Position numbers and translations under genes: made by a program | Source: Candidatus Latescibacterota bacterium | Lineage (GTDB): Bacteria > Latescibacterota > UBA2968 | Assembly: GCA_965208125.1 (NCBI GenBank) | Contig: OZ242320.1 | Span: 4,352,001 to 4,416,000, forward strand | Length of the DNA stretch: 64,000 nucleotides | Direction of reading: 5' to 3' | The notes under the pieces: model-generated | The model's input: the letters and a program-made list of their open reading frames with translations, nothing else | Databases searched by the model: none | What the model was told of the DNA's origin: nothing | In this document: positions 1-21,435 of the stretch, piece after piece | Layout of the letters: each line of letters opens with the position of its first letter | How positions within the stretch are numbered: the stretch's first letter is position 1

Positions 1-196
1 CTAACCTATAAAAGCCGACGATCTGTCCCATTTCTTCTACTACATAGACGGTGTGATGGCTAATATCTTGTTGGGTATAAGTTAGATCCTGGCGGCATGC
101 TTCAAGAAAATCTGCATCGTAGTTCCAATGCGCTTTTGAGCACATTGCAAGGTTACTCAACGCTTCATTTTCGTCAGCTTTTGCAGTTCTGATCAT
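1..196 (-). CDS. GNAT family N-acetyltransferase (cassette gene, runs off window start)
   Basis: Manual translation from ATG at 196: MIRTAKADENEALSNLAMCSKAHWNYDADFLEACRQDL...VGFYRL, a typical GNAT N-terminus; follows the GTTAAATGTAAT cassette start. Confidence 0.8.
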   Translation of the reverse strand, partial: MIRTAKADENEALSNLAMCSKAHWNYDADFLEACRQDLTYTQQDISHHTVYVVEEMGQIVGFYRL

Positions 197-230
197 TGGC
201 GTGATCCCGATAATATGTATTTCTCATTAC

Positions 231-373
231 ATTTAACGGTTTATGGCTTGCGAACCGAGCAGGGGGTGGACGAAGGCCGACGGCTCTTGAAAAGAATCCC
301 CGCCAGAAAACTTATCTCGCAGGGATTTTATGGTGCAGAAATGGTTGATAATGGCAGACTAAATTTGCTACGC
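231..373 (-). repeat. Degenerate attC-like site
   Basis: Right arm CGCAAGCCATAAACC-GTTAAAT (minus) resembles the intact sites; left core is degenerate (GCTACGCGGCAT on + at 367). Confidence 0.5.
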
Positions 374-413
374 GGCATACCTACAGGAGTCAATAGTGTA
401 GAATATCAAACGA

Positions 414-587
414 TCAACCTAAATTTTCAGTCACTGGTTTGGATTCTATCAATTGATCCTGATACTCTTTCTGGCGTTCCATATAGTAAGCGACCAGTTG
501 TGCAGGATCATGGTCGAAACGTGCTGAGATACGGTGACGTATCTTCCGAATTTCGTCTATGACTGGGTCATTCTGATTCTTTTTCAT
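414..587 (-). CDS. Small protein downstream of PIN gene, putative antitoxin
   Basis: MKKNQNDPVIDEIRKIRHRIS...; overlaps the PIN gene stop. Confidence 0.65.
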   Translation of the reverse strand: MKKNQNDPVIDEIRKIRHRISARFDHDPAQLVAYYMERQKEYQDQLIESKPVTENLG

Positions 588-1062
588 TGTTGTCTCCAAG
601 TAGCTCTAAGGGCGTGACCAAGGTTGGCACATATAGCCCCAGCAAAGTATTCACGCGGCGAATGTGGCCAAATTTGTTTGCATTGGCCAAATGACGACAA
701 TTCCAGGTGGCCAAAAATTCGCATTTGTGAAAAGACGCCAGTGCCAAATGGATCGCATCACCTCCAGGATCAGCGGGCATTACCTTGTGCTGAATGTACG
801 TCTGTACGATTTCCAAAATCGCTGGCTCGATGGCCAAAAGGGGTAGGTCCCTAACAACAGCCAATCGTAGTTCCGTGCGCTCTGGAATATCGCCCATTAA
901 TTCGTCCAGAACTGCTGGACTTGTCACCAGGTCATATTGATTTGGCGCATTGTCCCACCACTCCCGAGTCCAGTCTCGTCGAGCTATAATATCAGGGGCA
1001 GTGCGTCTTTCGACGTAAAAACTGGGAATCGAAGTTTCAACATAGACACGTGGTTTGGCCAT
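568..1062 (-). CDS. PIN-domain (VapC-like) ribonuclease toxin
   Basis: VYVETSIPS, DAIHLALA and LATWNCRHLAN motifs. Confidence 0.85.
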   Translation of the reverse strand: MAKPRVYVETSIPSFYVERRTAPDIIARRDWTREWWDNAPNQYDLVTSPAVLDELMGDIPERTELRLAVVRDLPLLAIEPAILEIVQTYIQHKVMPADPGGDAIHLALASFHKCEFLATWNCRHLANANKFGHIRRVNTLLGLYVPTLVTPLELLGDNNEKESE

Positions 1063-1135
1063 ATTTATAAAATACCGCAATTAGCTTGGAAAGGGTAGAG
1101 TAAATTTGTTTGTCTACCAAACTTGGGATCTGCCA

Positions 1136-2026: not shown

Positions 2027-2062
2027 GGGGACCTGCCAAAGAGGATTAATTGTCGCGATTTC

Positions 2063-2117
2063 CGCTAACTGTTGGGTGAAGCCCGAATGGCCGAAGCCGT
2101 GTACAGTCGTGTTATGC
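2063..2117 (-). repeat. Short attC-like site, probably internally deleted
   Basis: GCATAAC-ACGACTGTACACGGCTTCGGC...-GTTAGCG (minus); left arm resembles the site at 15123-15206. Confidence 0.65.
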
Positions 2118-2196
2118 GGTGTGCTCACTTCATTACGGCAGGAGAAACTCTGTGGAAAGGTTCCGCAAGCCTGGAGTTAGTGACCGTGCTCCCTCC

Positions 2197-2720: not shown

Positions 2721-3240
2721 TCAGGCCGCAGTTAGCAAGATAGGCCAGCCATCGGTAATAACGACGGTATGCTCAAAATGAGCCGAAAGAGATCCGTTTG
2801 AGGTCCTCACGGTCCAACCGTCGCAATCTTCAACGGCCCGGGCTGGATGCTCGGCAATCATAGGCTCAATGGTGATCACAAGACCATTCGTAAGCGGCTT
2901 CGAATCGAACGGATTGTAGGTGTTTGCAACGATGGGATCTTCATGGATAACCCGACCTACCCCGTGCCCCGCAAGCTCATTGACAACCCAGAATCCTTGT
3001 CGTTTCACCTCGTGCTCTACGGCATGACCGATGCAATTGATCGGTTTGTTTGCACGAGCTACGGCCACCGCCTTTTCGAATGCCGTACGAGCACATCGAC
3101 ACAATCTATCGGCTTTCGCGGAATATGGAGGAATCGGGATGGTGATTGCTGCATCTGCAATGTAGCCATTCAGTTCAGCGGTGACATCCAGGCTTACAAT
3201 GTCACCCTGTTCCAGCACTCGATCACCCAGAATACCGTTT
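2721..3240 (-). pseudogene. map: N-terminally truncated type I methionine aminopeptidase
   Basis: GDIVSLD, DAAIT, GHGVG.IHE, TIEPMI, SAHFEHT motifs; begins at NGILGDR (cf. HGIP), so the N-terminal third is missing. Confidence 0.8.
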
Positions 3241-3255
3241 TGAAGGTGATAACTT

Positions 3256-4587
3256 TCAATATTTTAGTTTTATTATTTTATTTGCTTCTCGGAGACCGCT
3301 TAAAAAAGCTCCGTGTACCGTTCCTCTATAGTCAAAAATAGTGTGTTCACCAGCAAAAAATACTTTATTGCCAATGGGTTCTTCAAACACCTCAAAATCT
3401 GAACTTCTAGAACCACTAGCAACAAATGAGTAGGCGCCGAATGAATACGGGTTTTCGTTCCATTTTGTTCTTAACATATGAGTTGGGTGAGGTATGTCGT
3501 TTCCATAAATCCTTTTAAGATGTAACATAATTTCTTTGATAATCTGTTCATTTGTCATTGTCTCGGTTTGTTTAGAGTAGTCACCAAAAGCAAAAGTCAT
3601 TAACGCATTGGCATCTGCAAACTTTTTTACATTTAAGAAGTAATTGAATTTTCCTTTTGTCTCGGGTGTATAGCCAATATATTGTAGATCTTCTTCCCAA
3701 AATATATCGTCCCAGACTAAAAGAAATTTATTTACTGTACCCATCTTCAGGTTGTTGATGGCGTTTTGGATTTTATTGGGTAAGGCTGGCGTGAATTGTA
3801 TTACGTTCTTCTTGAGTACACCTAAAGGCACAGTAACCAAAACTATATCTGCTGTATAGTTACCATTAGTTGTTTGAATAGAAACCTTATCTTTAGAATA
3901 GTCAATATCTACGACTTTTGTGTTTAATCGAACATCAATGTCCTGGGCTAAATAATTGGTTATATGGTCGTAACCATTTGTAATGATAACATCTTTGCCC
4001 TTAAAAGCTTCATCATCATCAAAATCTAATGAGGACAGCTTGTAAATATCTCCTCCAGTATCAAATTCTAAAAAGGCTGATAGCATATAAGTCCAAAGTC
4101 TTTGATTTTTGTATTGAGGATATTTTTTATAGAAAATATCTGCAAAACTCTGGTCTCTATTACCTGCCAAATTCTCTAAAATGTCGTTGTACTTATCTTC
4201 TGCTGCGTCTAGTTTTTTAGGGATATATTCAGAACCATCTATGTCAAAAACTTTAACATGGAAATCGTCTGTAAAAAAGGTTTTAGCTCCTGACGCATTT
4301 GCAAGTTTAGTAATAGGGTTTTTTATAGGACCGTGAATCCAACTTGCTCCTTCGTCAAAGGCTACTCCAAGACTTCTATCTGTTTTTAATCGTCCGCCAA
4401 CTTTCTCTTGTGCTTCTAAAACAATAGGATTAAATCCATTTTTCTTTAGTTGATTAGCAGCACTTAAACCTGAAATTCCCGCTCCAATGATGATGACGTT
4501 CTTTTTGACCTGTTTGTTTCTATTTGGACTTAGAACGCTACAGGACGAAATGGCAAAAATAAAGAAAAGTAATAATATTTTTTTCAT
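3256..4587 (-). CDS. Flavin monoamine/polyamine oxidase family lipoprotein
   Basis: Lipoprotein-like signal MKKILLLFFIFAISSC; GAGISG, EAQEKVGGR and FAGEHT...GTVHGAFLSG motifs; markedly AT-rich. Confidence 0.9.
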   Translation of the reverse strand: MKKILLLFFIFAISSCSVLSPNRNKQVKKNVIIIGAGISGLSAANQLKKNGFNPIVLEAQEKVGGRLKTDRSLGVAFDEGASWIHGPIKNPITKLANASGAKTFFTDDFHVKVFDIDGSEYIPKKLDAAEDKYNDILENLAGNRDQSFADIFYKKYPQYKNQRLWTYMLSAFLEFDTGGDIYKLSSLDFDDDEAFKGKDVIITNGYDHITNYLAQDIDVRLNTKVVDIDYSKDKVSIQTTNGNYTADIVLVTVPLGVLKKNVIQFTPALPNKIQNAINNLKMGTVNKFLLVWDDIFWEEDLQYIGYTPETKGKFNYFLNVKKFADANALMTFAFGDYSKQTETMTNEQIIKEIMLHLKRIYGNDIPHPTHMLRTKWNENPYSFGAYSFVASGSRSSDFEVFEEPIGNKVFFAGEHTIFDYRGTVHGAFLSGLREANKIIKLKY

Positions 4588-4610
4588 AGAGATTGGTCCT
4601 AATGGCACAC

Positions 4611-4687
4611 AACTACGAGATTGACGAACAGTTACGATAATACGTACCAAATCTATGTATCTTCGACCTTGCGGAAATTCTTCCCTT
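4611..4687 (-). repeat. Second copy of the attI-like site
   Basis: 67/77 identical to 15970-16046; similarity stops at the GTT core. Confidence 0.8.
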
Positions 4688-4711
4688 TATTTCGTGCTTC
4701 TAACCATTGCT

Positions 4712-5692
4712 TTAGCGAACGTTGGCTCTCTCCTGAAGGTCGGCCAGTCCATATATTTCCGACGCTAATATCCTCATTTTGCATGGGTTTGACTGCAAAT
4801 CTCGGTGGAAGTCGTAGGTCCAGTCAACGGGCCGGAATCCCATGTTCGCGTACAGTGAAAGGGCTGGACCGTTGTCTTCGTTCGTACCGATGATCGCGCT
4901 CCGGTATCCTAATTGCGAGGCGTCGTACAGGCCGCGCTGAAGTGTCAACCATCCGTAGCCCTTCCCCTGTTCTGCCTCCACAACGTCAACATCATTCACG
5001 CAGAGCCAAGGACCCTCTCCCTTCTTTACTTCAGATGTCCTGAATGGGCGGCTGAAGTACACACCAACCTCACTGGCGTTCAGAAACGATGTAACACGAA
5101 GTGCAGGCATGTCGCCATCCTCGGGCACAGTTTCAGATCGGAAATCCAGAGGGCAGGACGCGGGAATCGGTTCCTGCGAGAAGCACGGCCACTCAAGTAT
5201 TACGTGACCTCTACTACGAACGTAGCCACGTGCGGCCAAGAGCCCCTGGACGTGAGCCAGGTGATTCGACAAGCTGGCCTGGGGAAGAGATCTGAAGAAG
5301 GGAAAGTTTCTCGAGAAGATCGTGACCGAGGACGCATTGTTCTCCAATGCGTGAGACTCAACTGCGTTGAGTAGCATCTGGCCAGCTCGTCGGCATCCAC
5401 GTTTGTATCCGAGGAATCGGACAATTCCTCTGCCTGTAGGCCTCATGGTCCCGGTGTGTCCTTGCCCTACTAAGGCAAGCCCAACAACCTCGGAACCTGA
5501 AACAGCGACCAGCTTCACTTCTGGCTGGATCCTTCTGTTCTTTCTTCTCTCGTTTCCTCCAACGGCGAAATCAATTTCGTCGGGAGTAAGGGACCTGCAA
5601 TGCGGAACTCCACCAACCAGATCTGCGAAGAACGTAGCCAGGTCCCTCGCCATACTGCTGGTGTAGTTGACGGTTTCAATTCTGCGATTCAT
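4712..5692 (-). CDS. Tandem-domain GNAT acetyltransferase
   Basis: VVEAEQGKGYG and NGPALSLYANMGF motifs; N-terminal degenerate GNAT domain. Confidence 0.75.
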   Translation of the reverse strand: MNRRIETVNYTSSMARDLATFFADLVGGVPHCRSLTPDEIDFAVGGNERRKNRRIQPEVKLVAVSGSEVVGLALVGQGHTGTMRPTGRGIVRFLGYKRGCRRAGQMLLNAVESHALENNASSVTIFSRNFPFFRSLPQASLSNHLAHVQGLLAARGYVRSRGHVILEWPCFSQEPIPASCPLDFRSETVPEDGDMPALRVTSFLNASEVGVYFSRPFRTSEVKKGEGPWLCVNDVDVVEAEQGKGYGWLTLQRGLYDASQLGYRSAIIGTNEDNGPALSLYANMGFRPVDWTYDFHRDLQSNPCKMRILASEIYGLADLQERANVR

Positions 5693-5758
5693 TTTTGAAC
5701 TGACCGTTCAGTCAAATTGTGAAAACCTCAAGAGAAAGTCTAATCATCTTCGCTTGTA

Positions 5759-6283: not shown

Positions 6284-6370
6284 TTTAAAGGAAGAGGGGT
6301 TCGGGTTGATCAGAAAGATTTCTGCGTCAGGTTCAAATTTGTTAATGCCTGAGATGTGAGCCTACTCACT

Positions 6371-6425
6371 GTTGTGTTATGCGGCATGCTCACTTCTTTA
6401 CGGAGGGAGAAGCTCTGTGGAAAGG
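6371..6425 (-). repeat. Cassette 3'-end element with left attC core, repeated at 2106-2160
   Basis: 48/55 identical to 2106-2160; contains GCATAAC (minus). Confidence 0.7.
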
Positions 6426-7783
6426 CCCCCCGAGAAACCTCTTTCTTTGATTTGCGCCACGAAGCCATTGATCTCCGCCTGACTCAAGATATCATTTCCA
6501 CTTATAATAAGCTGGCCACCCAGGTGAGCCAGGTTCTTCAGTCCTCTCAGACTTCTTAGTCGTGGATTGTTGCTGATTTCCAAATGGCCGCCAATGGATG
6601 TAAGATGCTCCAGGCCTTCCAGACTCTCCAGTTGTTCGTTCTGGCGTATGTAGAGGAAGCCTCCAATTTCCTTTAGTGCTTGCAGACCATCGAGGACGGC
6701 AAGGTTGTTGTTGGCCGTAATATGTATGCCGCGGGAGACGTACCGTAGGCTTCGCAGCCCCTGCAAGTCTCGCAGGGAGTGGTTAGATACGATCAGCAAG
6801 CGACCATCAATAGACTCGATTCTATGAAGTCCCTCCAGCGACGCCAGCTTTGGATGGCCGTCCAGGCGGAGATCCCTTGGTACAGTTTTGATTCTGTTTA
6901 GGGATGCGATGCTCTGTAGTGATTCGTTGTGGAGTATGTAAATGTCTCTGCCTACTCTCTCTACATTGAGCCCATCCAGGTTGAGCAGGTCGGGATTCCG
7001 AATAAGCTTCAGGTCCCGCGCTACATTGGTGATCGTCTCACATTGGGTAATGCCATGAAGACCATCGCACCGGAAGATGCATAGATCACCGTATGTGGCA
7101 GCCAGACGATTATGCGATATGTCCTTCTCCTGGAGGCCTGGCGATAGGTGGGAAAGGATTGTCGTCAAGTATTCAGGCCATTGATGGTCGGTCATATCGA
7201 TTCTGCATACTCGGACGTCCAGCTTGCCAATTAACTCATCCGTCATCTCTCGAAACGCGGTATAGAGTTGGGCGTAGCCAGCGAATCCTCTCCACCCATT
7301 CCTCTTAGCCCGAGCCCGTGTGGTGACCTTGAGGTTGATCTGGGTATTCTCCCAGCGATTTCCCCGGTCATCACAGGTACGTCGCAGGAAACTCGGCACG
7401 TCAGACTGCATCAGATAAACCACAGTCGGGTTGAGTTGCGAAACTGCATTAATGACTCCTCGAACGTAGTTCTCGATTGTGACGGGTTCAACGTCGTTGA
7501 AGAACAGCTCTGCCGTATTGCGATGAAATAGCTGGCCATCGAGGACGGTGACCGAATCGTTCTGCGCTCTTGAGGCGGTGAAGTCTCGCCATCTTTCCAG
7601 ACTCTCCTCTATCTGGCAGGCCTCGCCTTGCCACTCCATCCGAGTTGGATGATTTGGATCCTTCTCATGAATATGTGCGGTTGGTATCCCGTTTCGTTCA
7701 AGCTGCGAGCAAAGGAACTCTGCTGTATTGGTCTTCCCGGAGCCAGGGATTCCTTCCACAAAGATCAACTTGGTGTTCAGCAA
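6398..7783 (-). CDS. P-loop nucleotide kinase-like domain fused to receptor-L/leucine-rich repeats
   Basis: IFVEGIPGSGKT Walker A; repeated LxxLxGLxxLxxIGGxLxIxxN units; TTG start after GGAGG. Confidence 0.7.
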   Translation of the reverse strand: MLNTKLIFVEGIPGSGKTNTAEFLCSQLERNGIPTAHIHEKDPNHPTRMEWQGEACQIEESLERWRDFTASRAQNDSVTVLDGQLFHRNTAELFFNDVEPVTIENYVRGVINAVSQLNPTVVYLMQSDVPSFLRRTCDDRGNRWENTQINLKVTTRARAKRNGWRGFAGYAQLYTAFREMTDELIGKLDVRVCRIDMTDHQWPEYLTTILSHLSPGLQEKDISHNRLAATYGDLCIFRCDGLHGITQCETITNVARDLKLIRNPDLLNLDGLNVERVGRDIYILHNESLQSIASLNRIKTVPRDLRLDGHPKLASLEGLHRIESIDGRLLIVSNHSLRDLQGLRSLRYVSRGIHITANNNLAVLDGLQALKEIGGFLYIRQNEQLESLEGLEHLTSIGGHLEISNNPRLRSLRGLKNLAHLGGQLIISGNDILSQAEINGFVAQIKERGFSGGLSTELLPP

Positions 7784-7888: not shown

Positions 7889-8635
7889 TTAAGCACCCTG
7901 TGGGGGACCGGATATAGGTTTTCCCAACCTCATGAGTAATAACATCGGCCAACCAAGATCAAAATCTTCTGGAAACTCAGTCCAGTACTCCTTCGCTCTG
8001 GGCGACTTCTCAAGCAGGCATTCGTCAGCAAGATGCTCCTCAATGCGATCAATCTGAAGTTGGGCCTTCAAGGCTGCATTGACATAGTCCGCGGTCTGGT
8101 GGTGATAGCCCTCGACGTTAACCTTTTGGCCTGTCTTCATATCAGTGAAGCGAGCCTGTAGGCGACGGAGACGCATCGCTGGGTGGAGTTCTGAGATGAG
8201 AATGAAACCTCCTGGCCGACAGATCCTCGCCATTTCTCCGATTACTGGATCCAAACCAGAAATGTGCTCCAGGACGAGGCAGCATAGGACGCGATCAAAG
8301 GTATCATTCTCGAATGGGAGGCGCTCTGTCAGATCATGGGTAACGAATCGCACATCGTGGTCTTTCGTCTTCTCAATAGCTTGCGCCATCATTTCTGGAG
8401 CGAAGTCAATTGCGGTCACCCTGGCACCTGCTTCTGACAGATAGAGGGTATGACGTCCCGTACCGCAGCCGATATCAGCGACGCTGAGTTCTTGGACATT
8501 CCCCAACAGGGATCGCAATAGCGGCTCTTCCAAAATAATCAAGGAATTGTCCTGCGTATCGTACGTCTCAGACCAACGAGCGTAGCCTTGCCGGACAGGT
8601 ACGGTTTCAAGATCGGCCCCAGACCCGTCATTCAT
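7889..8635 (-). CDS. Class I SAM-dependent methyltransferase
   Basis: VADIGCGTGR, LPFENDTFD, RPGG motifs. Confidence 0.9.
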   Translation of the reverse strand: MNDGSGADLETVPVRQGYARWSETYDTQDNSLIILEEPLLRSLLGNVQELSVADIGCGTGRHTLYLSEAGARVTAIDFAPEMMAQAIEKTKDHDVRFVTHDLTERLPFENDTFDRVLCCLVLEHISGLDPVIGEMARICRPGGFILISELHPAMRLRRLQARFTDMKTGQKVNVEGYHHQTADYVNAALKAQLQIDRIEEHLADECLLEKSPRAKEYWTEFPEDFDLGWPMLLLMRLGKPISGPPQGA

Positions 8636-8856
8636 GTTGTATGCCTCCAGGATAATGCCGGTGGTCCTGCCCAAAGTTAATACTCAAATAAGATAGCCCC
8701 AACAGCATCGAGTCGATATTGGTTGCCATCGTATGCAATCGTCGTAACGGAGCATTCACGCATTACTTCACCACTGTATGGGTCATTGCAGAATTCCGGA
8801 CTGATGCGACTCAGTTCTTCAGATTCGCCCCCGACTGAACACAACTCGGTGGAAAA

Positions 8857-9576: not shown

Positions 9577-9717
9577 GTATTCCTTAGAGATTTTTCAGGT
9601 TGGTCGATTTGGTGAAAACTCGAAGAATCAGAAAAGTTCGAGAATATGATGGGGAGTGGGTTCTGTTTTTGTTTTTGCACGCTAAAGGGTTTTTCTGGGT
9701 GGTGTTGGGGCGATTGC

Positions 9718-9857
9718 CCATAACGTCTCGCCGGTTGCCGATGTGGCCGTGATCAGTTAAACAAATCGCTGCTTTTACAATCAGGAAACACAAAGCTTCA
9801 CGAGCCATTTGGGTCGGAGCAACCGCAGGGAGCGGAGCCTGCAACTTGATGTTAACT
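9718..9857 (-). repeat. attC-like site (140 bp)
   Basis: AGTTAAC...CCGGCGAGAC-GTTATGG (minus); left end GTTAACTGC (+) matches the start of its own cassette at 12226. Confidence 0.8.
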
Positions 9858-9906
9858 GCTGTGGCGGTGCCGGGCTGCATTTGCCAGGACAGCAAATGCG
9901 GCTTCG

Positions 9907-12210: not shown

Positions 12211-12219
12211 CGTTATTGC

Positions 12220-12310
12220 AGTTAACGTTTCGCCGGTTTGCGAACCCGCGCAGCGGGTTGCCGAAGGCCAAGGCGCGAACTGCGCCGCAGCGCAAACCGT
12301 GCTGTTAGAG
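12220..12310 (-). repeat. attC-like site (91 bp)
   Basis: CTCTAAC-AGCA-CGGTTTGCG...CGCAAACCG-GCGAAAC-GTTAACT with two internal hairpins. Confidence 0.9.
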
Positions 12311-12351
12311 GACGTTGTGCCTTCCCTGACACCCGACTGACACCGAGATGC

Positions 12352-13173: not shown

Positions 13174-13188
13174 TCACAATGTCCTCTA

Positions 13189-14125
13189 GGTAGTGTCTGA
13201 AAAGTCGTAAAGTATGTATTTTAGTTGCAGCATACGCCCAAGACAAAGGAGTATGATATGCAACGGAGATACGAACTGAGCGACGACGAATGGCATCTGA
13301 TCCAAGACTTGTTTCCACCGCCGAAGAAGATGGGTCGTCCCCGTCGAGATGATCGTACATTATTCAACGGGGTCTTCTGGATATTGTGTTCAGGTGCAGC
13401 TTGGCGCGACCTACCAGAACGATATGGTCCTTGGCAGACAGCCTTTGATCGATTCTGCAAATGGAAACAGGATGGCACTTTTGATCGCATTGTAGAAAAA
13501 TTGCATCTCAAATTGGATGAAGATGGCCTTTTAGATTATGCGACCTGGATGATGGATGCAACCCATATTCGAGCCACACAAGCCGCAGCAGGGGCGAAAA
13601 AAAAAGGGTAAAGAGGGTGAAGAAGAGCCCCCAGACCACGCTTTAGGACGCTCTCGTGGCGGTTTGACCACGAAAATCCATCTTCTTTGCGATGCAGTCG
13701 GGCATCCTTTAGCAGTGGACCTGCTCCCTGGCAACCAGTCAGAATCCACACAGGCTGAAAGGCTGTTATCAAAGGTACGCATACCCACCAAACAAGGACG
13801 TCCAAGAAACCGACCTCAGTATCTGGTGGCTGATAAATCTTATGATGTCTCACGCATCAGAGTCTATCTACGCAAACGGGGTATCAAGGCTGCTATCCCA
13901 AACAAGGCGATTCCTAAAGGCAGAAAACGGCGTAAGAGAGGACCAAGGCCAAAGTGTGATAAAAGATTATATGCCAAACGCAATATCGTAGAGCGTCTCT
14001 TTGGTTGGCTCAAACACTGCCGACGGATTGTGACTCGGTTTGAAAAAAAGGCGACTCATTTTCTCACTATGGTCAAGCTGGCCTGCATCAGACAACTCTT
14101 CAAAGCTTACTTTTCAGACACTACC
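13189..14125 (+). mobile_element. IS5-family (IS427-like) insertion sequence, 937 bp
   Basis: 17-bp TIR GGTAGTGTCTGAAAAGT / ACTTTTCAGACACTACC; TA duplication at 13187-13188 and 14126-14127. Confidence 0.92.
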
Positions 14126-14128
14126 TAA
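13258..14128 (+). CDS. IS5-family transposase in two frames, split at an A9 run (13597-13605)
   Basis: OrfA WRDLPERYGPW and MDAT; OrfB LGRSRGGLTTKIH, ADKSYD, RNIVERLF. Confidence 0.9.
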
Positions 14129-14220
14129 CGTTTCGCCGGTTTGCGAACCCCGAGCTTGTCGAGGGGTTGCCGAAGGCCAAGGCGCGACCAGCGCCGCAGC
14201 GCAACACCGTGCTGTTAGAC
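14123..14220 (-). repeat. attC-like site with right core rebuilt by the IS end
   Basis: Nearly identical to 12220-12310; GTCTAAC...GGCGAAAC-GTTAGGT. Confidence 0.9.
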
Positions 14221-15105
14221 GACGTGCCCTGCCATTCTCTCGAGTGAGTTCCGGGCTATCCGTTCTATCTCCTCCCCTGGTAACAAAGCAATGTCTTCGA
14301 AATCCACCACCTTTTCTAATGAGCGGATTACTTCCCGTCCAAGGAAGTGGCCACATCCACTGCGCCCCTTTATGCTGAACCAAGAGCCGAAGAATGAATT
14401 CACTGGCTGATCCCCATCTACCAGTTTCAGAAATTCGGTAGCAAGCCAGGCTTTGTTTGACGTGCACCAGGCGAGCCAATTCTCCTCGCCATATTGTTCA
14501 TGCCATGAATCGTCACCAAATACAATTTGCTCGCTACGGACCGCAAATCCCTCGCGATAAAGCTGCCAAAAAGGCCCCTTACCAGACGGTAAACCGCTTC
14601 GTTTGCGGCGCTGTATGTGGAGAAGATGGCCCAACTCGTGGGCAGTGAGGCCGGTCAGCGCCTTCTCTGTAGTGTAGCCACATTCAGCAATGTTCTCTAA
14701 TCCGAAGAGGCAAGCAGACCTCCCTCCAAGGCTAGTGGCCCATCCCGCGCCGCAACCAATTCCCACATAGATCATGAAGAGAACGTCAAAATCCAGATCA
14801 AGAGACTCCTGTGCCCTGCGGTATACTTTATCTATACAGGTTAACAATACAGCTCTCGCCTTTCCCATGGACGGCAACCGCTCCTGCAGATATGGGAAAA
14901 CTTTATCTTTTCCAATCGCGCGCCACCCCCCTTCCTGGCCAATGTAATCCTTTTGCTGTTTTTCGAGCAGTTCGGGCCACTGTGACATGTATTCAGTGGC
15001 CCAAAGCTCCAACTGCGTCTCAAGCGGTTTCACATGGACGGCCTCCCAAAAGGAGAGGAAAGCAGGAAACGTATCAACGATCTCGCACTGTGCCATCTTT
15101 AACAT
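14215..15105 (-). CDS. Putative zinc metallopeptidase (DUF2268-like)
   Basis: AHELGH HExxH motif followed by EGFA; its stop TAA lies inside the attC core. Confidence 0.65.
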   Translation of the reverse strand: MLKMAQCEIVDTFPAFLSFWEAVHVKPLETQLELWATEYMSQWPELLEKQQKDYIGQEGGWRAIGKDKVFPYLQERLPSMGKARAVLLTCIDKVYRRAQESLDLDFDVLFMIYVGIGCGAGWATSLGGRSACLFGLENIAECGYTTEKALTGLTAHELGHLLHIQRRKRSGLPSGKGPFWQLYREGFAVRSEQIVFGDDSWHEQYGEENWLAWCTSNKAWLATEFLKLVDGDQPVNSFFGSWFSIKGRSGCGHFLGREVIRSLEKVVDFEDIALLPGEEIERIARNSLERMAGHVV

Positions 15106-15122
15106 CTTGACCTCGGCATGTC

Positions 15123-15206
15123 GTCTAACGTTTTCGCCGTGTCCGAACCGCGAAGCGGTTGCGCGAAGGCGCCTCAGCGCCGAAGCCGGGCACGGACGTG
15201 TTACGC
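15123..15206 (-). repeat. attC-like site (84 bp)
   Basis: GCGTAAC-ACGT-CCGTGCCCG...CGGACACGG-CGAAAAC-GTTAGAC. Confidence 0.9.
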
Positions 15207-15256
15207 GCTGTGCTGCTACTGGCCCTCACCAAGGCAGTTCCGTCAAGTCTCATACT

Positions 15257-15913
15257 TCACGAATACATCGACAGATCATCCCAGTCCGGCCATAGCGTCG
15301 GTCGAGTTAATTTCGGATCGGGATGCCAGTCTTCCCACTCGGCAGAGAACGGACCCAAGTTCTGCTCAATCTCCTCAACTGCCCGCTGGCCTTCTGCATA
15401 GATCGCCTCAGCATCTTCGGCACTCACTCTACCGTCCTGCATACACAGCTCGAGTTCGTCCTCGTTTTTCCACCTCCACTCTCGGTTTGGCTCGACGAGA
15501 ATATCAAGCTGATGGTCCCTCAAGTCGAAACCCAACCGTGTACGCGTCAGCTCGCTCTGCATGTTTACGTACCACCCTAAGAACTCACGCTCTCTTGACC
15601 ATCTGACCCACGTCGCCCGTTGCTGATGGGGGTTGACGACGATCAATAGCTCAGCCCATTGCCAAGTCGAATCCTGAAGCGCCCAGTTGTTCTTGGTCCA
15701 CCGACGTGGCGTCCCAGGCGTGTGGTTTATTAGCTCCGCCTTCTTTGAAGGTGTATTCAGTGGGAGCCAAAGGACGATCTGGATATCAGAATCTTCGACT
15801 ACGGTGACAGGCTTCACATCGATGATTTGCCCATGTTCATCAGTCTCTCGATAAAGAATGGATTCACCGCGGCTAAATATGTTGGCTCCTTGGTACATTT
15901 GGGACTTCCTCAC
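15257..15913 (-). CDS. DUF402 domain protein (first cassette)
   Basis: FLGWYVNMQ, DHQLDILV, WRWKNEDEL motifs. Confidence 0.85.
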   Translation of the reverse strand: MRKSQMYQGANIFSRGESILYRETDEHGQIIDVKPVTVVEDSDIQIVLWLPLNTPSKKAELINHTPGTPRRWTKNNWALQDSTWQWAELLIVVNPHQQRATWVRWSREREFLGWYVNMQSELTRTRLGFDLRDHQLDILVEPNREWRWKNEDELELCMQDGRVSAEDAEAIYAEGQRAVEEIEQNLGPFSAEWEDWHPDPKLTRPTLWPDWDDLSMYS

Positions 15914-15965
15914 ACGGTACAGCCAGAAGATCCTATCAGCCTCGAAGTACCCGCAATGGCATGGC

Positions 15966-16075
15966 GCGTAACTACGGGATTAACGAACAGTTACGGTAAT
16001 ACATACCAAATCTATCTATCTCCGCACGTGCGGGAATTCTTCCCTTCAAAGGTTGTATCCCGAACATGTTCGGGA
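15966..16075 (-). other. attI-like recombination site overlapping the recombinase 3' end
   Basis: GTTACGC core where cassette 1 begins (complement at 15200); not an attC palindrome; conserved second copy at 4611. Confidence 0.75.
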
Positions 16076-16842
16076 ATGCTTCCTATGGAGGCATCATTTC
16101 TATTCAGAACCCGCCTCCTTTCCTCCATCAACGCATCCAACGGACTCTGGATCTTTGCGATATCCCGATTTGTCACCCGCGTATAAATCTGGGTGGTCTT
16201 TGGACTTTTATGCCCGAGCAGTTCCTGGATATACCGAAGATCTGTTCCGTGTTCAAGCAGGTGGGTAGCAAAAGAATGCCGTAACGTGTGTACCGACACA
16301 CGCTTGTTAATCTTGGCTTTTTTATAAGCGCGGTCAAAAATTTTTTGAACCGACCGTTCAGTTAAATGCAGTCCCGGTTTGGCACCCGGAAATAGCCATG
16401 TTTGGGGTTGATATTGGCACTTGTAATCTTGCACCGCCTTCTGGGCAAATTTGGAGAGCATCGTGTACCGATCCTTCCGGCGCTTGCCTTGACGGATATG
16501 AATCAATTTTCGATCCAGGTCGATATCCTCGACCTTCAGCCGGACCACCTCACCCAGACGAAGACCTCCGGAATACGTCAGCAGCATAATCGTCTGGTGT
16601 TTCAGGTTCTTTACTGCATTGAGGAGTCGAAGTACTTCTGCCTGGCTCAACACAGTGGGCAATTTATGCTCTTTTTGAGAACGGGGCAGATTTTCAAGAG
16701 GATATTGATATTTTAACACTCGTTGGAATAGGAATTTCAGGGCACTTACACACTGATTGACGTAACTGTGAGAAGCTCCCTTTTCAAGCAGATGATACAC
16801 ATAAGCTTTATATTTTGGCGATTTTAGATGTTGATATTCCAT
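16012..16842 (-). CDS. Tyrosine recombinase, IntI-like but lacking the IntI insertion
   Basis: KLPTVLS, GLRLGE, GKRRKDR, WLFP, HTLRHSFATHLLE, QELLGH, TTQIY, SPLD; AAGGAG RBS. Confidence 0.92.
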   Translation of the reverse strand: MEYQHLKSPKYKAYVYHLLEKGASHSYVNQCVSALKFLFQRVLKYQYPLENLPRSQKEHKLPTVLSQAEVLRLLNAVKNLKHQTIMLLTYSGGLRLGEVVRLKVEDIDLDRKLIHIRQGKRRKDRYTMLSKFAQKAVQDYKCQYQPQTWLFPGAKPGLHLTERSVQKIFDRAYKKAKINKRVSVHTLRHSFATHLLEHGTDLRYIQELLGHKSPKTTQIYTRVTNRDIAKIQSPLDALMEERRRVLNRNDASIGSIPEHVRDTTFEGKNSRTCGDR

Positions 16843-17101
16843 TGAGGTCTCCTTTCGGCTTTGCGTTCTAAAATTTGTTTGGCTTTGCTTACAAACAAAT
16901 CCTGTGCCGTAGAGACCGCCAATAAGGAACGTTTGACGAACCTTTTGTGAAACAGTGAGTTATGTACTTTCTGCTTCAGATGGGAAAATCTGCTTTATTA
17001 AACAGAATGTTCAGTTGGATGATTTGCTTGAAAACAGACCGTTCAACATTGTATGAAATTTACACAGACCAGATTTCAAAAACTGTCTGAAGTATTATAG
17101 G

Positions 17102-18029: not shown

Positions 18030-19076
18030 TCATCTCACTTCAGGTATTGACACACTCAGTTCATTTGCTGTTTCGACCGTGTTGTCCCAGGTTTCGTCTT
18101 CGATAAAGACACCTTCTGCTTCGCGTTTGACGCGTGTGTCGTGTTCGATTTCTCCCGGGAGATAGATTTTATCGACATCGGGCTGGGTGCGAGAGGACTT
18201 GATCCAGTCGCAGAGACGTCCAATTTCGTTGAGGTAGTCAGAGAGGTCGATAAAGCTGTCGATTTTGATGGCGATGGCGATATAGCCACTGCCGCCTCGC
18301 GTGGGTTGTTCCGAACTGCATCCCGCCCATGAGAGACCGCCCGCGATGGCGTCGATCATCATGCCCAGGCCATATCCCTTGTGGCCCTGAGGTCCGCCCA
18401 GGGGCAGCATTGCCACATCGCTGCCTTTGAAGCGATTGGGGTCATTCACGGGATTGCCGTCTGCATCTACGAGCCAGCCATCGGGTGTTTGTTGCCCGCG
18501 CGCGCGATACACATCGACTTTGCCACCGGCAGACATGCTGGTGGTTATGTCGAGCATGAGGGGAGGACCGTGGGGGGTGGGGGCGCTGAAGGCTATGGGA
18601 TTGGGGGGGAGGCGTCGGCTCGTGCCGCCAAAGGGGGCGGTAAAGCGTCCGCCGCCATTGAGCATGAGCAAGCCAATGCAGTTGCGTTCAGCCGCTTTGG
18701 GCGGATAATCGCCCAGGCGACCAATGTGACTGGAGCGGTGAACGGCGATGGCGCCGATGGTGTGTTCGAGGGCGCGGTCGGTAGCCATTTGCATGGCTTT
18801 GTGAGCGACGACAATGCCGATGGTGCGTTCGGCATCAATGACGGCTGAGACGGGGGTTTCTCGAATAATTTTGAGTTCATGTACGGGTTTAATGTTGCCG
18901 CTTGTGATGGCGCGGATATAGCCCGGCGTGCGAATAACACCGTGCGAATCGTGCCCGTAGAGGTTGGCATCCACGAGGTGGTCGGCTACGATGTGGGCTT
19001 GATCTTCGGGAAATCCCGCAGCGCTGTAGAGTTCGCGTTGCAGGGTTCGAAGGTGCGTTGCGTCAATAATGGGCAT
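18030..19076 (-). CDS. Ldh_2 family (malate/lactate/ureidoglycolate) oxidoreductase
   Basis: GHDSHG, SHIGRLG, NPIA, GHKGYGL, YLPGE motifs. Confidence 0.9.
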   Translation of the reverse strand: MPIIDATHLRTLQRELYSAAGFPEDQAHIVADHLVDANLYGHDSHGVIRTPGYIRAITSGNIKPVHELKIIRETPVSAVIDAERTIGIVVAHKAMQMATDRALEHTIGAIAVHRSSHIGRLGDYPPKAAERNCIGLLMLNGGGRFTAPFGGTSRRLPPNPIAFSAPTPHGPPLMLDITTSMSAGGKVDVYRARGQQTPDGWLVDADGNPVNDPNRFKGSDVAMLPLGGPQGHKGYGLGMMIDAIAGGLSWAGCSSEQPTRGGSGYIAIAIKIDSFIDLSDYLNEIGRLCDWIKSSRTQPDVDKIYLPGEIEHDTRVKREAEGVFIEDETWDNTVETANELSVSIPEVR

Positions 19077-19123: not shown

Positions 19124-20275
19124 CTATTGGATCGCTTGACGAACCCAATCGAGCGCGGAGAGCGGCATGATGCCGTAGTTGTAAAAGGCGAATTTGGTCA
19201 CGCCTTGTTCTCGGGCCGCCTGAAGATTGGCACAGAGGGTTTCTGCATTGGGGGAGGCTGGGGGATAGGCTTGAAGTCCGACAACGAGTTGGTCTGGACT
19301 CTGGATGATAGGTAAGAGTTCTGAGACTCGCGTTCTGGTGCGTTGGGGATCAGCAGTATAAGAAAGAATTTCTACACTGTCAGCAATTTGTGCAATGGCT
19401 TTGGGGTTCGATCCCGTGATTGTTGAATCGCCCATCAAGATATAGGAGAGTGGAACATTAATGGACGCTTTGAGTTCGCGCACGAGGGATGTGACAATTT
19501 CTTCGCGCATGGCGTCAAATGCTTCGAGATAGGGTGTTGTGCGTTTGAGTTCTGTGATCGTTTCTCGAACGGGTTGACCGGTTTCAAATGCCGTGCGGAT
19601 TTTCGCGGTGACAGCGCTTTGTAGCTGGGCTATGTCGATATTGGCTTCCATCGCCTGTTTTTTGCAGCTGTCGCAGAAACAGAGCGAGAAGAGGAAGCGT
19701 CCGCCAGAGCCCAGGTCAATACCGTGTTTGGCGTGGTAGTGCAGATGGCCCCAACCGGAGTAGGCGAGAGATTCGCATTCGAGAAGGGAGATGCCATAGT
19801 TGTGAACCAGATCGCGAGAAAGCGCGATGGCAAAGGCACGCACGTCTGGATTTGCAGGGCAGAGAGCAGATGTGCTGATGTCACCTGTACAGCGGACTTC
19901 GGCACATTCGGGATGGGATTGCGCCTGATGGGAGTTGTGAAAAAAGACGGTCCATGAATTGAGATTTATACCAGCGGATGCTGCTGCTTTTGATGCTTCG
20001 CCCCACCAGTTTTCGTTTTGCATCAAAGGGCTAACATGTGGTTTGATTGCGCGGTAAAGCGATTCCTGTGGCTGAAAATAAATTGCTGCTTGTGAGACTT
20101 CGAGTGTGTTATTGGCGGGGAGATGGGGACGCAGCATGTCAAAGGTGTGGTAAGCCGATGCGAGGTTGATGGCGTCGAGTTTAACCTCTTCGCGGAGTTT
20201 GTGGAGAACGGCGTCATAACCTTCGTCGCGTAAATCCCAGGGATAAGTCCACATGGTGGCGTTGAGTGCAGGCAT
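19124..20275 (-). CDS. Conserved hypothetical TIM-barrel-like protein
   Basis: YPWD, AYH, LCPANP, FYNYG motifs. Confidence 0.6.
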   Translation of the reverse strand: MPALNATMWTYPWDLRDEGYDAVLHKLREEVKLDAINLASAYHTFDMLRPHLPANNTLEVSQAAIYFQPQESLYRAIKPHVSPLMQNENWWGEASKAAASAGINLNSWTVFFHNSHQAQSHPECAEVRCTGDISTSALCPANPDVRAFAIALSRDLVHNYGISLLECESLAYSGWGHLHYHAKHGIDLGSGGRFLFSLCFCDSCKKQAMEANIDIAQLQSAVTAKIRTAFETGQPVRETITELKRTTPYLEAFDAMREEIVTSLVRELKASINVPLSYILMGDSTITGSNPKAIAQIADSVEILSYTADPQRTRTRVSELLPIIQSPDQLVVGLQAYPPASPNAETLCANLQAAREQGVTKFAFYNYGIMPLSALDWVRQAIQ

Positions 20276-20359
20276 AGGGATGTTCCTTTCTCTGTTTAAG
20301 ACATGGTATTTTCGTTTTGAATAATTTCAAAGTGATTTTTGAAACGGGTTGAAAGAGGA

Positions 20360-20388
20360 TTGACTTTTTTCCTAAAATATGGTATAAC
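20360..20388 (+). promoter_or_regulatory. Sigma70-type promoter
   Basis: TTGACT-N17-TATAAC. Confidence 0.55.
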
Positions 20389-20421
20389 CTGTTTTGTATT
20401 CAACATTGTTTGGAGGAATGG

Positions 20422-21435
20422 ATGACAAAACTCGGATTGGGTGTGATTGGATGCGGCAATATGGGCGCGAGTCTGGCCAATGGCGCGCGGGAATTGGACT
20501 GCGCTGAGGTGGTTTGTGTCAGCGATATAGATGAAGAAAAGGGCCGGGCGCTATCTGAGAAAATGGACTGCGATTACGAGGTAGATTACCACACCATGCT
20601 GGCGCGGGAGGATGTGCAGGCTGTCATGATTGCCACGCCGCCGTTTTTGCATATTGAACCCACGACAGCAGCAGCCCGAGTGGGCGTGCATGTGTTTTGC
20701 GAGAAGCCCATGTCGCCGACGCTGGCAGGGTGTGATGCGATGATCGCCGCGTGTGAACAAGGTGGGGTTAAGTTGGGTATTGGGCTGGTATGTCGCTTTC
20801 ACCCGGTGCATCGCAAGGTGCGCGATTTGGCTCGCGGGGGCGATTTGGGAACGCCTTTGTGTTTGATGGTTCATCGCCTGGGGGGTGGTTGGGGCGGTGT
20901 GTGGTCTGCAACATGGCGGGAATCAAGAGCCAAAAGTGGCGGTACGTTGATGGAAGTGAATGCGCATGAAATCGATTTTATGCGTTTTGTGATGGGCGAT
21001 GCGGAATCGGTTTCTGCGGTGGGTGGACAGTTCGTGCAGATGGAGACGGATTTTCCAGATGTGGCACTCGTTTCCATCCGGTTTAAAAACGGTGGGGTAG
21101 GGGTATTGCATTCGAGTCAGGCAAGTGCTATTGGCGGTTATGGCGGGCGGTTGGATTGCGGCAAGGGTTCGGTGGTCTTTCCTTCGTTTTGGGGAGGTGA
21201 AGGTGGTTTGCGCTACAAGCGATACGACGGTCGTGAAACGGCGGTTGCCGCATCGGAGTTATCGCAAGATGAAAGCCCGGTGAGTCAGGAGGTCCGCGCG
21301 TTTTGCGAAGCAGTGATCAATGAGGAGGATCCACCGGTGTCTGGTGCAGATGGTCGGGCAGCTGTGGAAATTGCATTGGCTGCTTATCAGTCCATTGAAA
21401 CGGGCGAAGCGATTGCGCTTCCATTTGAGGAATGA
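20422..21435 (+). CDS. Gfo/Idh/MocA oxidoreductase
   Basis: GVIGCGNMG, HVFCEKP, GGTLME.AHEID. Confidence 0.92.
   Translation: MTKLGLGVIGCGNMGASLANGARELDCAEVVCVSDIDEEKGRALSEKMDCDYEVDYHTMLAREDVQAVMIATPPFLHIEPTTAAARVGVHVFCEKPMSPTLAGCDAMIAACEQGGVKLGIGLVCRFHPVHRKVRDLARGGDLGTPLCLMVHRLGGGWGGVWSATWRESRAKSGGTLMEVNAHEIDFMRFVMGDAESVSAVGGQFVQMETDFPDVALVSIRFKNGGVGVLHSSQASAIGGYGGRLDCGKGSVVFPSFWGGEGGLRYKRYDGRETAVAASELSQDESPVSQEVRAFCEAVINEEDPPVSGADGRAAVEIALAAYQSIETGEAIALPFEE

Follow-up and report, generated by a model that had tools for sequence, protein, structure and literature searches.

An orphan attI-like site in a chromosomal cassette array of a Latescibacterota bacterium headed by a tyrosine recombinase without the integron integrase-specific insertion

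Integrons are defined, and detected by software, through an insertion that is specific to their integrases together with a single attachment site per array. The closest described relatives of the locus analyzed here are the chromosomal integrons with an 'inverted integrase' (e.g., that of Treponema denticola), in which, according to the available text of PMC3607928, intI is transcribed toward attI and each integron has one attI only. A second point of reference is the delta-attI, which is found mid-array in class 1 and class 2 mobile integrons and is described, in the available part of the source, as recombination-proficient (PMC12901181). With respect to the enzymes, Cury et al. hold, in the sections at hand, that recombinases without the intI_Cterm region located beside attC sites are not IntI (PMC4889954); that study lists 21 such enzymes, perhaps with relatives among them. 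A search of the open-access literature yielded no account of a system like the one described below.

The window, i.e., the whole 64,000-nt stretch of DNA that was analyzed, encompasses the head and the first ~16 kb of a chromosomal cassette array from a Latescibacterota bacterium, which reads on the minus strand, and a segment of the core chromosome (17-64 kb, with rpsB, tsf, frr, aroC, mnmG, efp, accC, scpAB, cmk, rpsA and mutS). No second recombinase was detected among the ORFs of at least 180 aa in the 17-64 kb portion, and an Rfam scan of the window returned no family at the gathering score. Using P0001, a full-length (376 aa) homolog of the recombinase encoded at the array head, to scan species-representative genomes, we obtained 12 loci, 6 of which are from Candidatus Latescibacterota and are 75-99% identical to the window at the DNA level; four of the relatives are chromosome-level assemblies that show the same repeat pattern. 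Related chromosomes include OZ250150.1, OZ244960.1, OZ242311.1 and OZ241986.1. The recombinase-side flank of the window is syntenic with two of these loci (L001 and L006) which, together with the core-gene surroundings, indicates that the array is a sedentary chromosomal element. The locus shares with the inverted-integrase integrons, as far as these are described in the available text of PMC3607928 and PMC4889954, the placement of the recombinase gene, the site and the cassettes on one strand, the sedentary array beside core genes, attC sites with R''/L''/L'/R' boxes, the G|TT crossover, and the frequent inactivation of the integrase. Judging from the sequences, the element appears to work like an integron, but its recombinase fails a test that defines integron integrases.

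The recombinase gene (16012..16842, minus strand) encodes a 276-aa protein with a tyrosine recombinase domain (PF00589, E 4e-43) that is 92% identical to P0001 and is clearly damaged, the full-length homologs being 365-376 aa long. In all, more than 8000 homologs were identified. Approximately 100 codons have been lost in frame between two YVY motifs (MEYQHLKSPKYKAYVY|HLLEKG), and the reading frame runs 30 codons beyond the end of the homologs (…LMEGKEAGSE*); comparison of the DNA sequences places a frameshift near 16122, where the window has one G fewer than L001 at GGAGG(G)AAAGG. Among the four recombinase genes located at array heads, only that of L001 (376 aa) is intact; the gene in the window is deleted and frameshifted, that of L003 is split and that of L002 is 5'-truncated. 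In related genomes, P0031 and similar 214-aa proteins consist of the C-terminal half of the recombinase fused to an N-terminal fragment of a phosphotransferase-like cassette protein (…HPDHVMLLLDNAVAFRFENDL…), which is another sign of deletions entering the recombinase gene. Upstream of the recombinase start, at 16930-16955 on the minus strand, we noticed the sequence GGTTCGTCAAACGTTCC, which resembles the 3' end of an attC-like site (GGTTCGCAAACCGGCGAAACGTTA) and may be a relic site preceding the gene, or a chance likeness.

In the first-pass annotation, this gene was taken to encode an integron integrase, an assignment that did not withstand profile comparison. The best NCBIfam match of the window protein is indeed TIGR02249 (integron integrase, curated cut-off of 265 bits), but the scores of the window protein (196.9), P0001 (211.9) and the L001 protein (214.2) are all below the cut-off, and the match falls into two separately reported stretches (P0001, 1-173; window protein, 236-315), with the profile positions between them unmatched. 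The scores for the XerA profile NF040815 (191.4, 211.8 and 215.7, respectively) are likewise below the curated cut-off of 220 bits, and P0001 scores about equally against the two models (211.8 vs 211.9 bits). By sequence, the closest solved structure is the integron integrase VchIntIA (2a3v; E 9.4e-38 for the window protein and 1.1e-41 for the L001 protein), but in the alignment 26 residues of the window protein correspond to 68 of VchIntIA (25 vs 67 for L001). What is missing is the insertion that IntI carries specifically near patch III (intI_Cterm, known in VchIntIA as the I2 region); it is absent from the recombinase of the window, P0001 and the L001 protein alike. In IntI, this region binds the extrahelical bases of attC. 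The AlphaFold model of P0001 (pLDDT 81.6) also has 2a3v as its best fold match (E 1.4e-16), followed by XerA, so that IntI is the nearest solved structure by both sequence and fold. The N-terminus contains ~95 extra residues that are predicted to form a small strand-rich domain; no Pfam family matched it above threshold (the sole match, in one homolog, is HARP with E 0.0098), and the protein atlas placed it only in unnamed clusters with scores below 0.9.

Thus, the gene lacks the IntI-specific region, scores below the curated cut-off and is damaged in the window. The absence of this region and the additional N-terminal domain of ~95 residues distinguish the recombinase from those of the inverted-integrase integrons. 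Compared with XerA and the XerC/D-dif systems, it shows near-equal XerA and IntI scores and a palindrome in the site; it differs in that its scores are below the cut-offs and in that the site is multicopy, is followed by variable cassettes and is not located at the replication terminus. Considering that the adjoining recombinase lacks intI_Cterm, the array would probably be called a CALIN under the IntegronFinder definition as given in the available text of PMC4889954; unlike in a CALIN, a conserved, recombinase-linked site marks the start of the first cassette in four genomes. Presumably, the local recombinase performs the cutting, although the true enzyme could instead be a canonical IntI from another part of the genome.

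The site in question is present twice in the window, namely, as copy B, an attI-like site that heads the array (15970..16046, minus strand; crossover GTT at 15970-15972), and as copy A, an orphan attI-like site (4611..4687, minus strand; GTT at 4611-4613). The previously noted identity of the two segments at 67 of 77 positions was reproduced by blastn as a gapless alignment, and a repeat search extended it to 86 nt (4602-4687 and 15961-16046, 85% identity). A 33-nt core pattern, allowing at most 3 mismatches, occurs at two places in the 64 kb, both corresponding to the copies, and 100 shuffled sequences gave no match to it. Copies A and B form a direct repeat with a spacing of 11.4 kb. Nothing was found in favor of an assembly artefact or a collapsed repeat, and the probability of either is very low, given that copies A and B differ at 10 of the 77 positions and have unrelated flanks, and that the two-copy pattern recurs in other genomes including chromosome-level assemblies.

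Two details of the earlier description of the repeat required correction. The match was said to stop at the GTT, which is nearly so, except that 6 of the next 9 bases (4602..4610, minus strand, following the copy A GTT; 15961-15969 in copy B) are still identical; this residual likeness is due to a short, R'-like start that is common to every cassette in these arrays, all of which resemble GTTAnnnGCmAT. The repeat was also described as including the last codons of the integrase, and this is literally correct for ORF 16012-16842, but the tail of that ORF is a frameshift artefact: the 1-nt deletion causes read-through of the native stop (~16100-16102), so that the 'last integrase codons' within the repeat are non-coding DNA. 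Copy B is located ~53-127 nt past the native stop, is conserved across the nine copies described below, and the first cassette begins at its GTT. Between the native stop and the repeat, there are palindromes (16047..16099, minus strand; ATGCCTCC-ATA-GGAAGCAT and TCCCGAACATGTTCGGGA) that are missing at copy A and whose half-site CCGAAC/GTTCGG is also found in both palindromes within the repeat.

Using BLAST and profile searches, we identified nine copies of the site in the window and the six related loci, every one on the recombinase strand; nhmmer revealed no further copies in these sequences at E below 0.02. Four of the copies (window B, L001a, L002a and L003) are located 80-130 nt past the recombinase gene and the other five (window A, L001b, L002b, L005 and L009) are orphans. 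The arrays of the window, L001 and L002 contain two copies each, in contrast to the single attI of the inverted-integrase integrons. All copies conform to the consensus GAT..GG…ATTACCGTAAC-N-GTTCGkTAAT-mCC-TA-GTT, which contains the palindrome ATTACCGTAAC-N-GTTCGGTAAT, and the conserved core ends with CCCGTA-GTT in all nine. In a comparison of 35 pairs of copies (the pair L001b/L005, which has one cassette in common, was left out), the 43 nt through the GTT show a mean identity of 86.8% (minimum 74.4%), whereas the following 40 nt show 32.6% (maximum 47.5%); within the latter, the identity is 55.9% over the first 9 nt and 25.8% over nt 10-40. Beyond the GTT, there are 8 different sequences among the 9 copies, so that the DNA differs on one side of the site only, and the four head copies are followed by different first cassettes that start at the same GTT, as would be expected of attI. 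The attI-type behavior suggested in the first-pass annotation is therefore upheld, in the sense that a conserved site lies 3' of a tyrosine recombinase gene and unrelated cassettes appear to begin at its G|TT.

Single-strand folding of the copies from the window and L001 is not better than that of shuffled sequences (z from -0.77 to +0.64), for which reason we treat the site as double-stranded; the L002 and L003 copies fold modestly better than shuffled sequences (z of -2.0 and -1.6). A scan of 15800-16300 and 4400-4900, which does not cover the promoter types of this phylum, gave no sigma-70-like site, and the earlier suggestion that attI was duplicated to provide a second expression point is not supported. 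On the coding strand, no terminator-like site was detected at either copy. These results bear on the reading under which the 77-mer is no more than a 3' untranslated region or terminator belonging to the recombinase gene, copied passively together with gene fragments and without a role in recombination. This explanation accommodates the invariable origin of the 77-mer from the 3' flank of the gene and also the recombinase fragments without a site that are scattered through the arrays (window 5692-5717, L005 10006-10126, L006 10000-10099 and L009 10006-10100; the window fragment of 26 nt, on the minus strand, is 92% identical to 16342-16367, and L006 has 100 nt at the same junction). Nevertheless, we regard it as quite improbable because, apart from the unremarkable folding and the lack of a terminator-like site, the similarity stops at the same GTT in 9 of 9 copies with 8 different continuations, and these continuations are cassette starts that match their own attC.

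The downstream intergenic DNA in these arrays contains imperfect palindromes that start with ..TAAC and end with ..ACGTTA. In nine such attC-like sequences, 8 of the 11 stem pairs show compensatory changes, and the covariance model that we built from these nine sequences (hereafter R1) produced 23 matches at E<=1 in the window and the six loci, all 23 on the recombinase strand. By this model of our own, the palindromes have the features of attC, i.e., the R''(..TAAC) and R'(GTTA..) boxes, a paired L box, unpaired bases, a variable center and one orientation. In the window, attC-like sites (all on the minus strand) were found for cassette 1 (15120..15209, R1 score 75.1 bits, R'' GCGCGTAAC), cassette 2 (14120..14223, 86.6 bits), cassette 3 (12217..12313, 97.8 bits) and, in a long form, cassette 4 (9715..9860; its ortholog in L005, 2881-3027, scores 24.9 bits). 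A cassette start and the 5' box (R'') of the attC belonging to the same cassette are reverse complements of each other. This closure rule holds in cassettes 1-4 at 9/10, 10/10, 10/10 and 9/10 nt, respectively: the R'' of cassette 2 (GTCGTCTAAC) is the reverse complement of the start GTTAGACGAC, that of cassette 3 (GTCCTCTAAC) is the reverse complement of GTTAGAGGAC, the start after removal of an insertion sequence, and that of cassette 4 (AGCAGTTAAC) compares with the start GTTAACTGCA. After the sites L001a, L002a, L003 and L005, the agreement is 9-10/10 nt. By analogy with integrons, this rule is the signature that circular cassettes recombined at G|TT would leave. In L002, positions 20105-20801 contain a second copy (98.7% identity over 697 nt) of the cassette located past the orphan site (GTT at 8498); this second copy immediately follows an attC-like site and is joined to it precisely at the GTT. 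The presence of one cassette in both contexts indicates that the GTT of the site is equivalent to that of attC.

The attC-like site of cassette 2 is interrupted by an insertion sequence of the IS5 family (13187..14127, plus strand; 19-bp perfect terminal inverted repeats, DUF4096 and DDE_Tnp_1), which consists of two overlapping frames, has the TA within the GTTAG crossover box as its exact insertion point and is carried on the strand opposite to the array. A truncated attC represented by its 5' half (2060..2120, minus strand; weak R1 score of 8.5 bits) has an intact counterpart in L005 (9227-9313) and was recruited as the 5' end of a phosphotransferase ORF (1136-2128). A direct repeat of 67 nt (2103-2169 and 6368-6434, 82% identical) corresponds to the 3' end of an LRR-protein gene with the 5' half of its attC; the half-attC at 2071-2128 now provides the first codons of the phosphotransferase-like ORF, and the one at 6368-6397 is cut after ACAGTG.

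The single-gene units between attC-like hairpins are also pertinent to the possibility that integrative elements are arranged in tandem at one chromosomal site, with the repeats as their attL/attR-type junctions instead of an integron-type attI. Integrases with arm-binding domains carry an extra N-terminal domain comparable to the β-rich one of the recombinase described here, the copies form direct repeats with a distance of 11.4 kb between them, and relatives of the recombinase accompany IS91-family transposases in Clostridium plasmids, all of which could be reconciled with such elements. This interpretation is nonetheless very improbable, given that the recombinase gene is outside the repeat-bounded segment, that this segment is composed of units obeying the closure rule, that only one side of the site varies among the nine copies, and that the same cassette is found after the site and after attC.

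The surroundings of copy A were clarified by comparison with the related loci. Its mid-array position, already noted in the first-pass annotation, is confirmed by attC-like sites or their relics on both sides, which shows that cassette-type DNA flanks the copy; the one downstream is degenerate (228..320, minus strand; R1 score 13.4 bits, E 0.16 with filters off) and ends with GGTTCGCAAGCCATAAACCGTTA. Homology between the window and L006 stops at 4783, inside an acetyltransferase ORF, and resumes at 2696, such that the block 4782->2697 is an insert relative to L006; because both of its ends lie within genes, we consider it an insert with illegitimate junctions. In order, the block consists of 95 nt that are absent from all related loci (4688..4782, minus strand), copy A, an amine oxidase gene and a 5'-truncated map gene. 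The 95 nt form the chimeric tail of ORF 4712-5692 and include, at 4698-4704 on the minus strand, the heptamer GTTAGAA that had been described as preceding copy A. The heptamer is there, but it is not the end of an attC: with filters off, the attC model had no matches between 4454 and 9715, and the heptamer breaks the pattern GTTRRRY. As a candidate R' box of an attC it was rejected, since it ends in A instead of a pyrimidine.

The amine oxidase gene (3256..4587, minus strand; Amino_oxidase, E 6.7e-79) encodes a flavin amine oxidase with a lipoprotein-type signal peptide, begins 23 nt past the GTT of copy A and has a G+C content of 0.39-0.40 vs ~0.50 in the flanks. This segment occurs in none of the related loci and lacks an attC: within the window, no R'' matching GTTGTGTGCC was found downstream of it, and this box is matched well only in attC-like sites of L005 (13034) and L006 (16467). 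It is therefore at most a putative cassette. Joined to it is the 5'-truncated methionine aminopeptidase gene (map; 2721..3218, minus strand), which covers positions 84-246 of the 247 in TIGR00500.

Many breakpoints between the related arrays are not at a GTT, which implies that much of the array shuffling is not site-specific. At several of these junctions (window ~6352-6367 and ~2189-2201, L001 ~18545-18560, and L009 ~8085-8101), there is a hairpin-like motif, GTGAGTAGGCTCAC, that may represent a second type of breakpoint or only microhomology. A non-coding segment of 159 nt located upstream of a methyltransferase gene (8665-8823) recurs three times in L005, twice in L009 and once in L006 (93-97% identity) and resembles a leader or junction element that these arrays carry repeatedly. 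Comparison of L009 (13730-16449) with window positions 1-1104 showed that the orphan site of L009 is ~1.5 kb beyond the homolog of the left end of the window; from this alignment, a third copy of the site may lie just outside that end.

Based on these observations, we propose, with a probability of roughly 0.6, that copy A is an orphan attI-type site, a relic of a second recombinase-plus-site platform from which the gene was removed by a deletion that was not site-specific. Under this proposal, and in analogy with integrons, circular cassettes would be inserted at the site through recombination with the folded attC of the cassette; a second platform would once have been present, and ordinary deletions would have eroded it from the 5' side; the low-G+C amine oxidase gene at the GTT of copy A would be the last capture of this platform, truncated later; and the block of site, amine oxidase and truncated map gene would now be lodged between illegitimate junctions within the array. 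Copy A would thus have been active once, and is now presumably a relic rather than a working site. In the relatives, the orphans retain graded lengths of recombinase 3' sequence: in window coordinates, L002b retains 15959-16367, L001b and L009 extend to 16128-16130, copy A to 16046 and L005 to 16024. The coding sequence kept beside the orphans of the relatives amounts to about 0, 30 or 320 nt, and L001b and L005, which have the downstream cassette in common, differ in their upstream breakpoints. The earlier suggestion of a second integron that lost its integrase fits these remnants, although none is present beside copy A itself, no recombinase coding sequence being found upstream of it, so that the origin of copy A from a full platform rests on the relatives. 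Transfer of the platform as a legitimate cassette was considered as well and rejected, the upstream breakpoints of the five orphans being different and none of them located at GTT boxes.

Unlikely, in our estimate, is that copy A remains functional for insertion and is served by an active recombinase acting in trans, in which case cassettes would enter at 4613 and recombination between copies A and B would excise a giant cassette of 11.4 kb. The core of copy A is largely intact, and its nhmmer profile score (74.2) falls within the range of seven other full-length copies (70.8-82.7; the truncated L005 copy scores 59.6), which is what a working site would show. The same can be said of the recent insertion suggested by the 98.7%-identical cassette joined at the GTT of the L002 orphan, of L001, where an intact 376-aa recombinase is paired with two sites that are 97% identical, and of the proficiency ascribed to the mid-array delta-attI of class 1 and class 2 integrons in the available part of PMC12901181. 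However, the recombinase of the window is frameshifted and lacks ~100 codons, the two upstream palindromes of the head copies are missing at copy A, and there is no attC in the DNA past its GTT. Moreover, copy A has 3 substitutions in the core beside the crossover, at positions that are invariant in the other 8 copies (ATTAcCG, GTtAAT and TCcCG), and these, read from the alignment, might be a faint sign of decay.

The relic reading of copy A differs from what is described for delta-attI. Both situations involve a whole or partial attI that resides inside the array and not at its head (PMC12901181, available part). In the cases described there, the delta-attI are short remnants that form the 3' site of single resistance cassettes in mobile elements with canonical IntI1, whereas here the array is chromosomal, belongs to an uncultured phylum and contains a full-length site, with recombinase remnants in the relatives. 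Copy A was accordingly not accepted as a delta-attI-type cassette site: it comprises the whole 77 nt, there is no class 1 or class 2 integrase, the upstream ORF is chimeric, and no recombination box marks the junction between this ORF and the site.

The array thus has all the cassette sequence hallmarks, yet its recombinase lacks the insertion and there are extra orphan sites. Should the local recombinase be the enzyme, the current definition of an integron integrase would be too narrow, some of the 'integrase-less' clusters would hide an overlooked integrase, and a natural intermediate would be available for testing the step from a Xer-like enzyme to an integron integrase. The orphan sites, for their part, show how arrays can fuse or duplicate platforms, which bears on the order and age of cassettes in chromosomal arrays.

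More broadly, one could tentatively imagine, although we consider it somewhat doubtful, that tyrosine recombinases intermediate between Xer and IntI, without the insertion and with an additional N-terminal domain, run integron-type arrays in both Latescibacterota and Bacteroidota, that the attachment site lies 3' of the gene, and that the platform, in which the gene's 3' end is combined with this site, has been repeatedly duplicated and eroded to give several insertion points per array. Were this the case, single-stranded attC recombination would not need the IntI insertion, and many arrays scored as integrase-less would have an unrecognised integrase.

For Bacteroidetes, IntegronFinder surveys report very few integrons in the available text of PMC9024848. 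On a Chryseobacterium plasmid (L013, NZ_CP041688.1 9035-24036; 6962-12800), a recombinase that is 38% identical to the one described here and also lacks the IntI insertion heads a same-strand array. Its TIGR02249 score (206.7 bits) is below the cut-off of 265, and its XerA NF040815 score (221.5 bits) is just above 220. The array consists of small unrelated genes between TAAC…GTTA palindromes, the closure rule holds twice at 9/10, and the next attC-like site harbors a transposase of the IS110 family. The Clostridium plasmids encode more distant relatives of the recombinase, which are located next to the IS91-family transposases instead.
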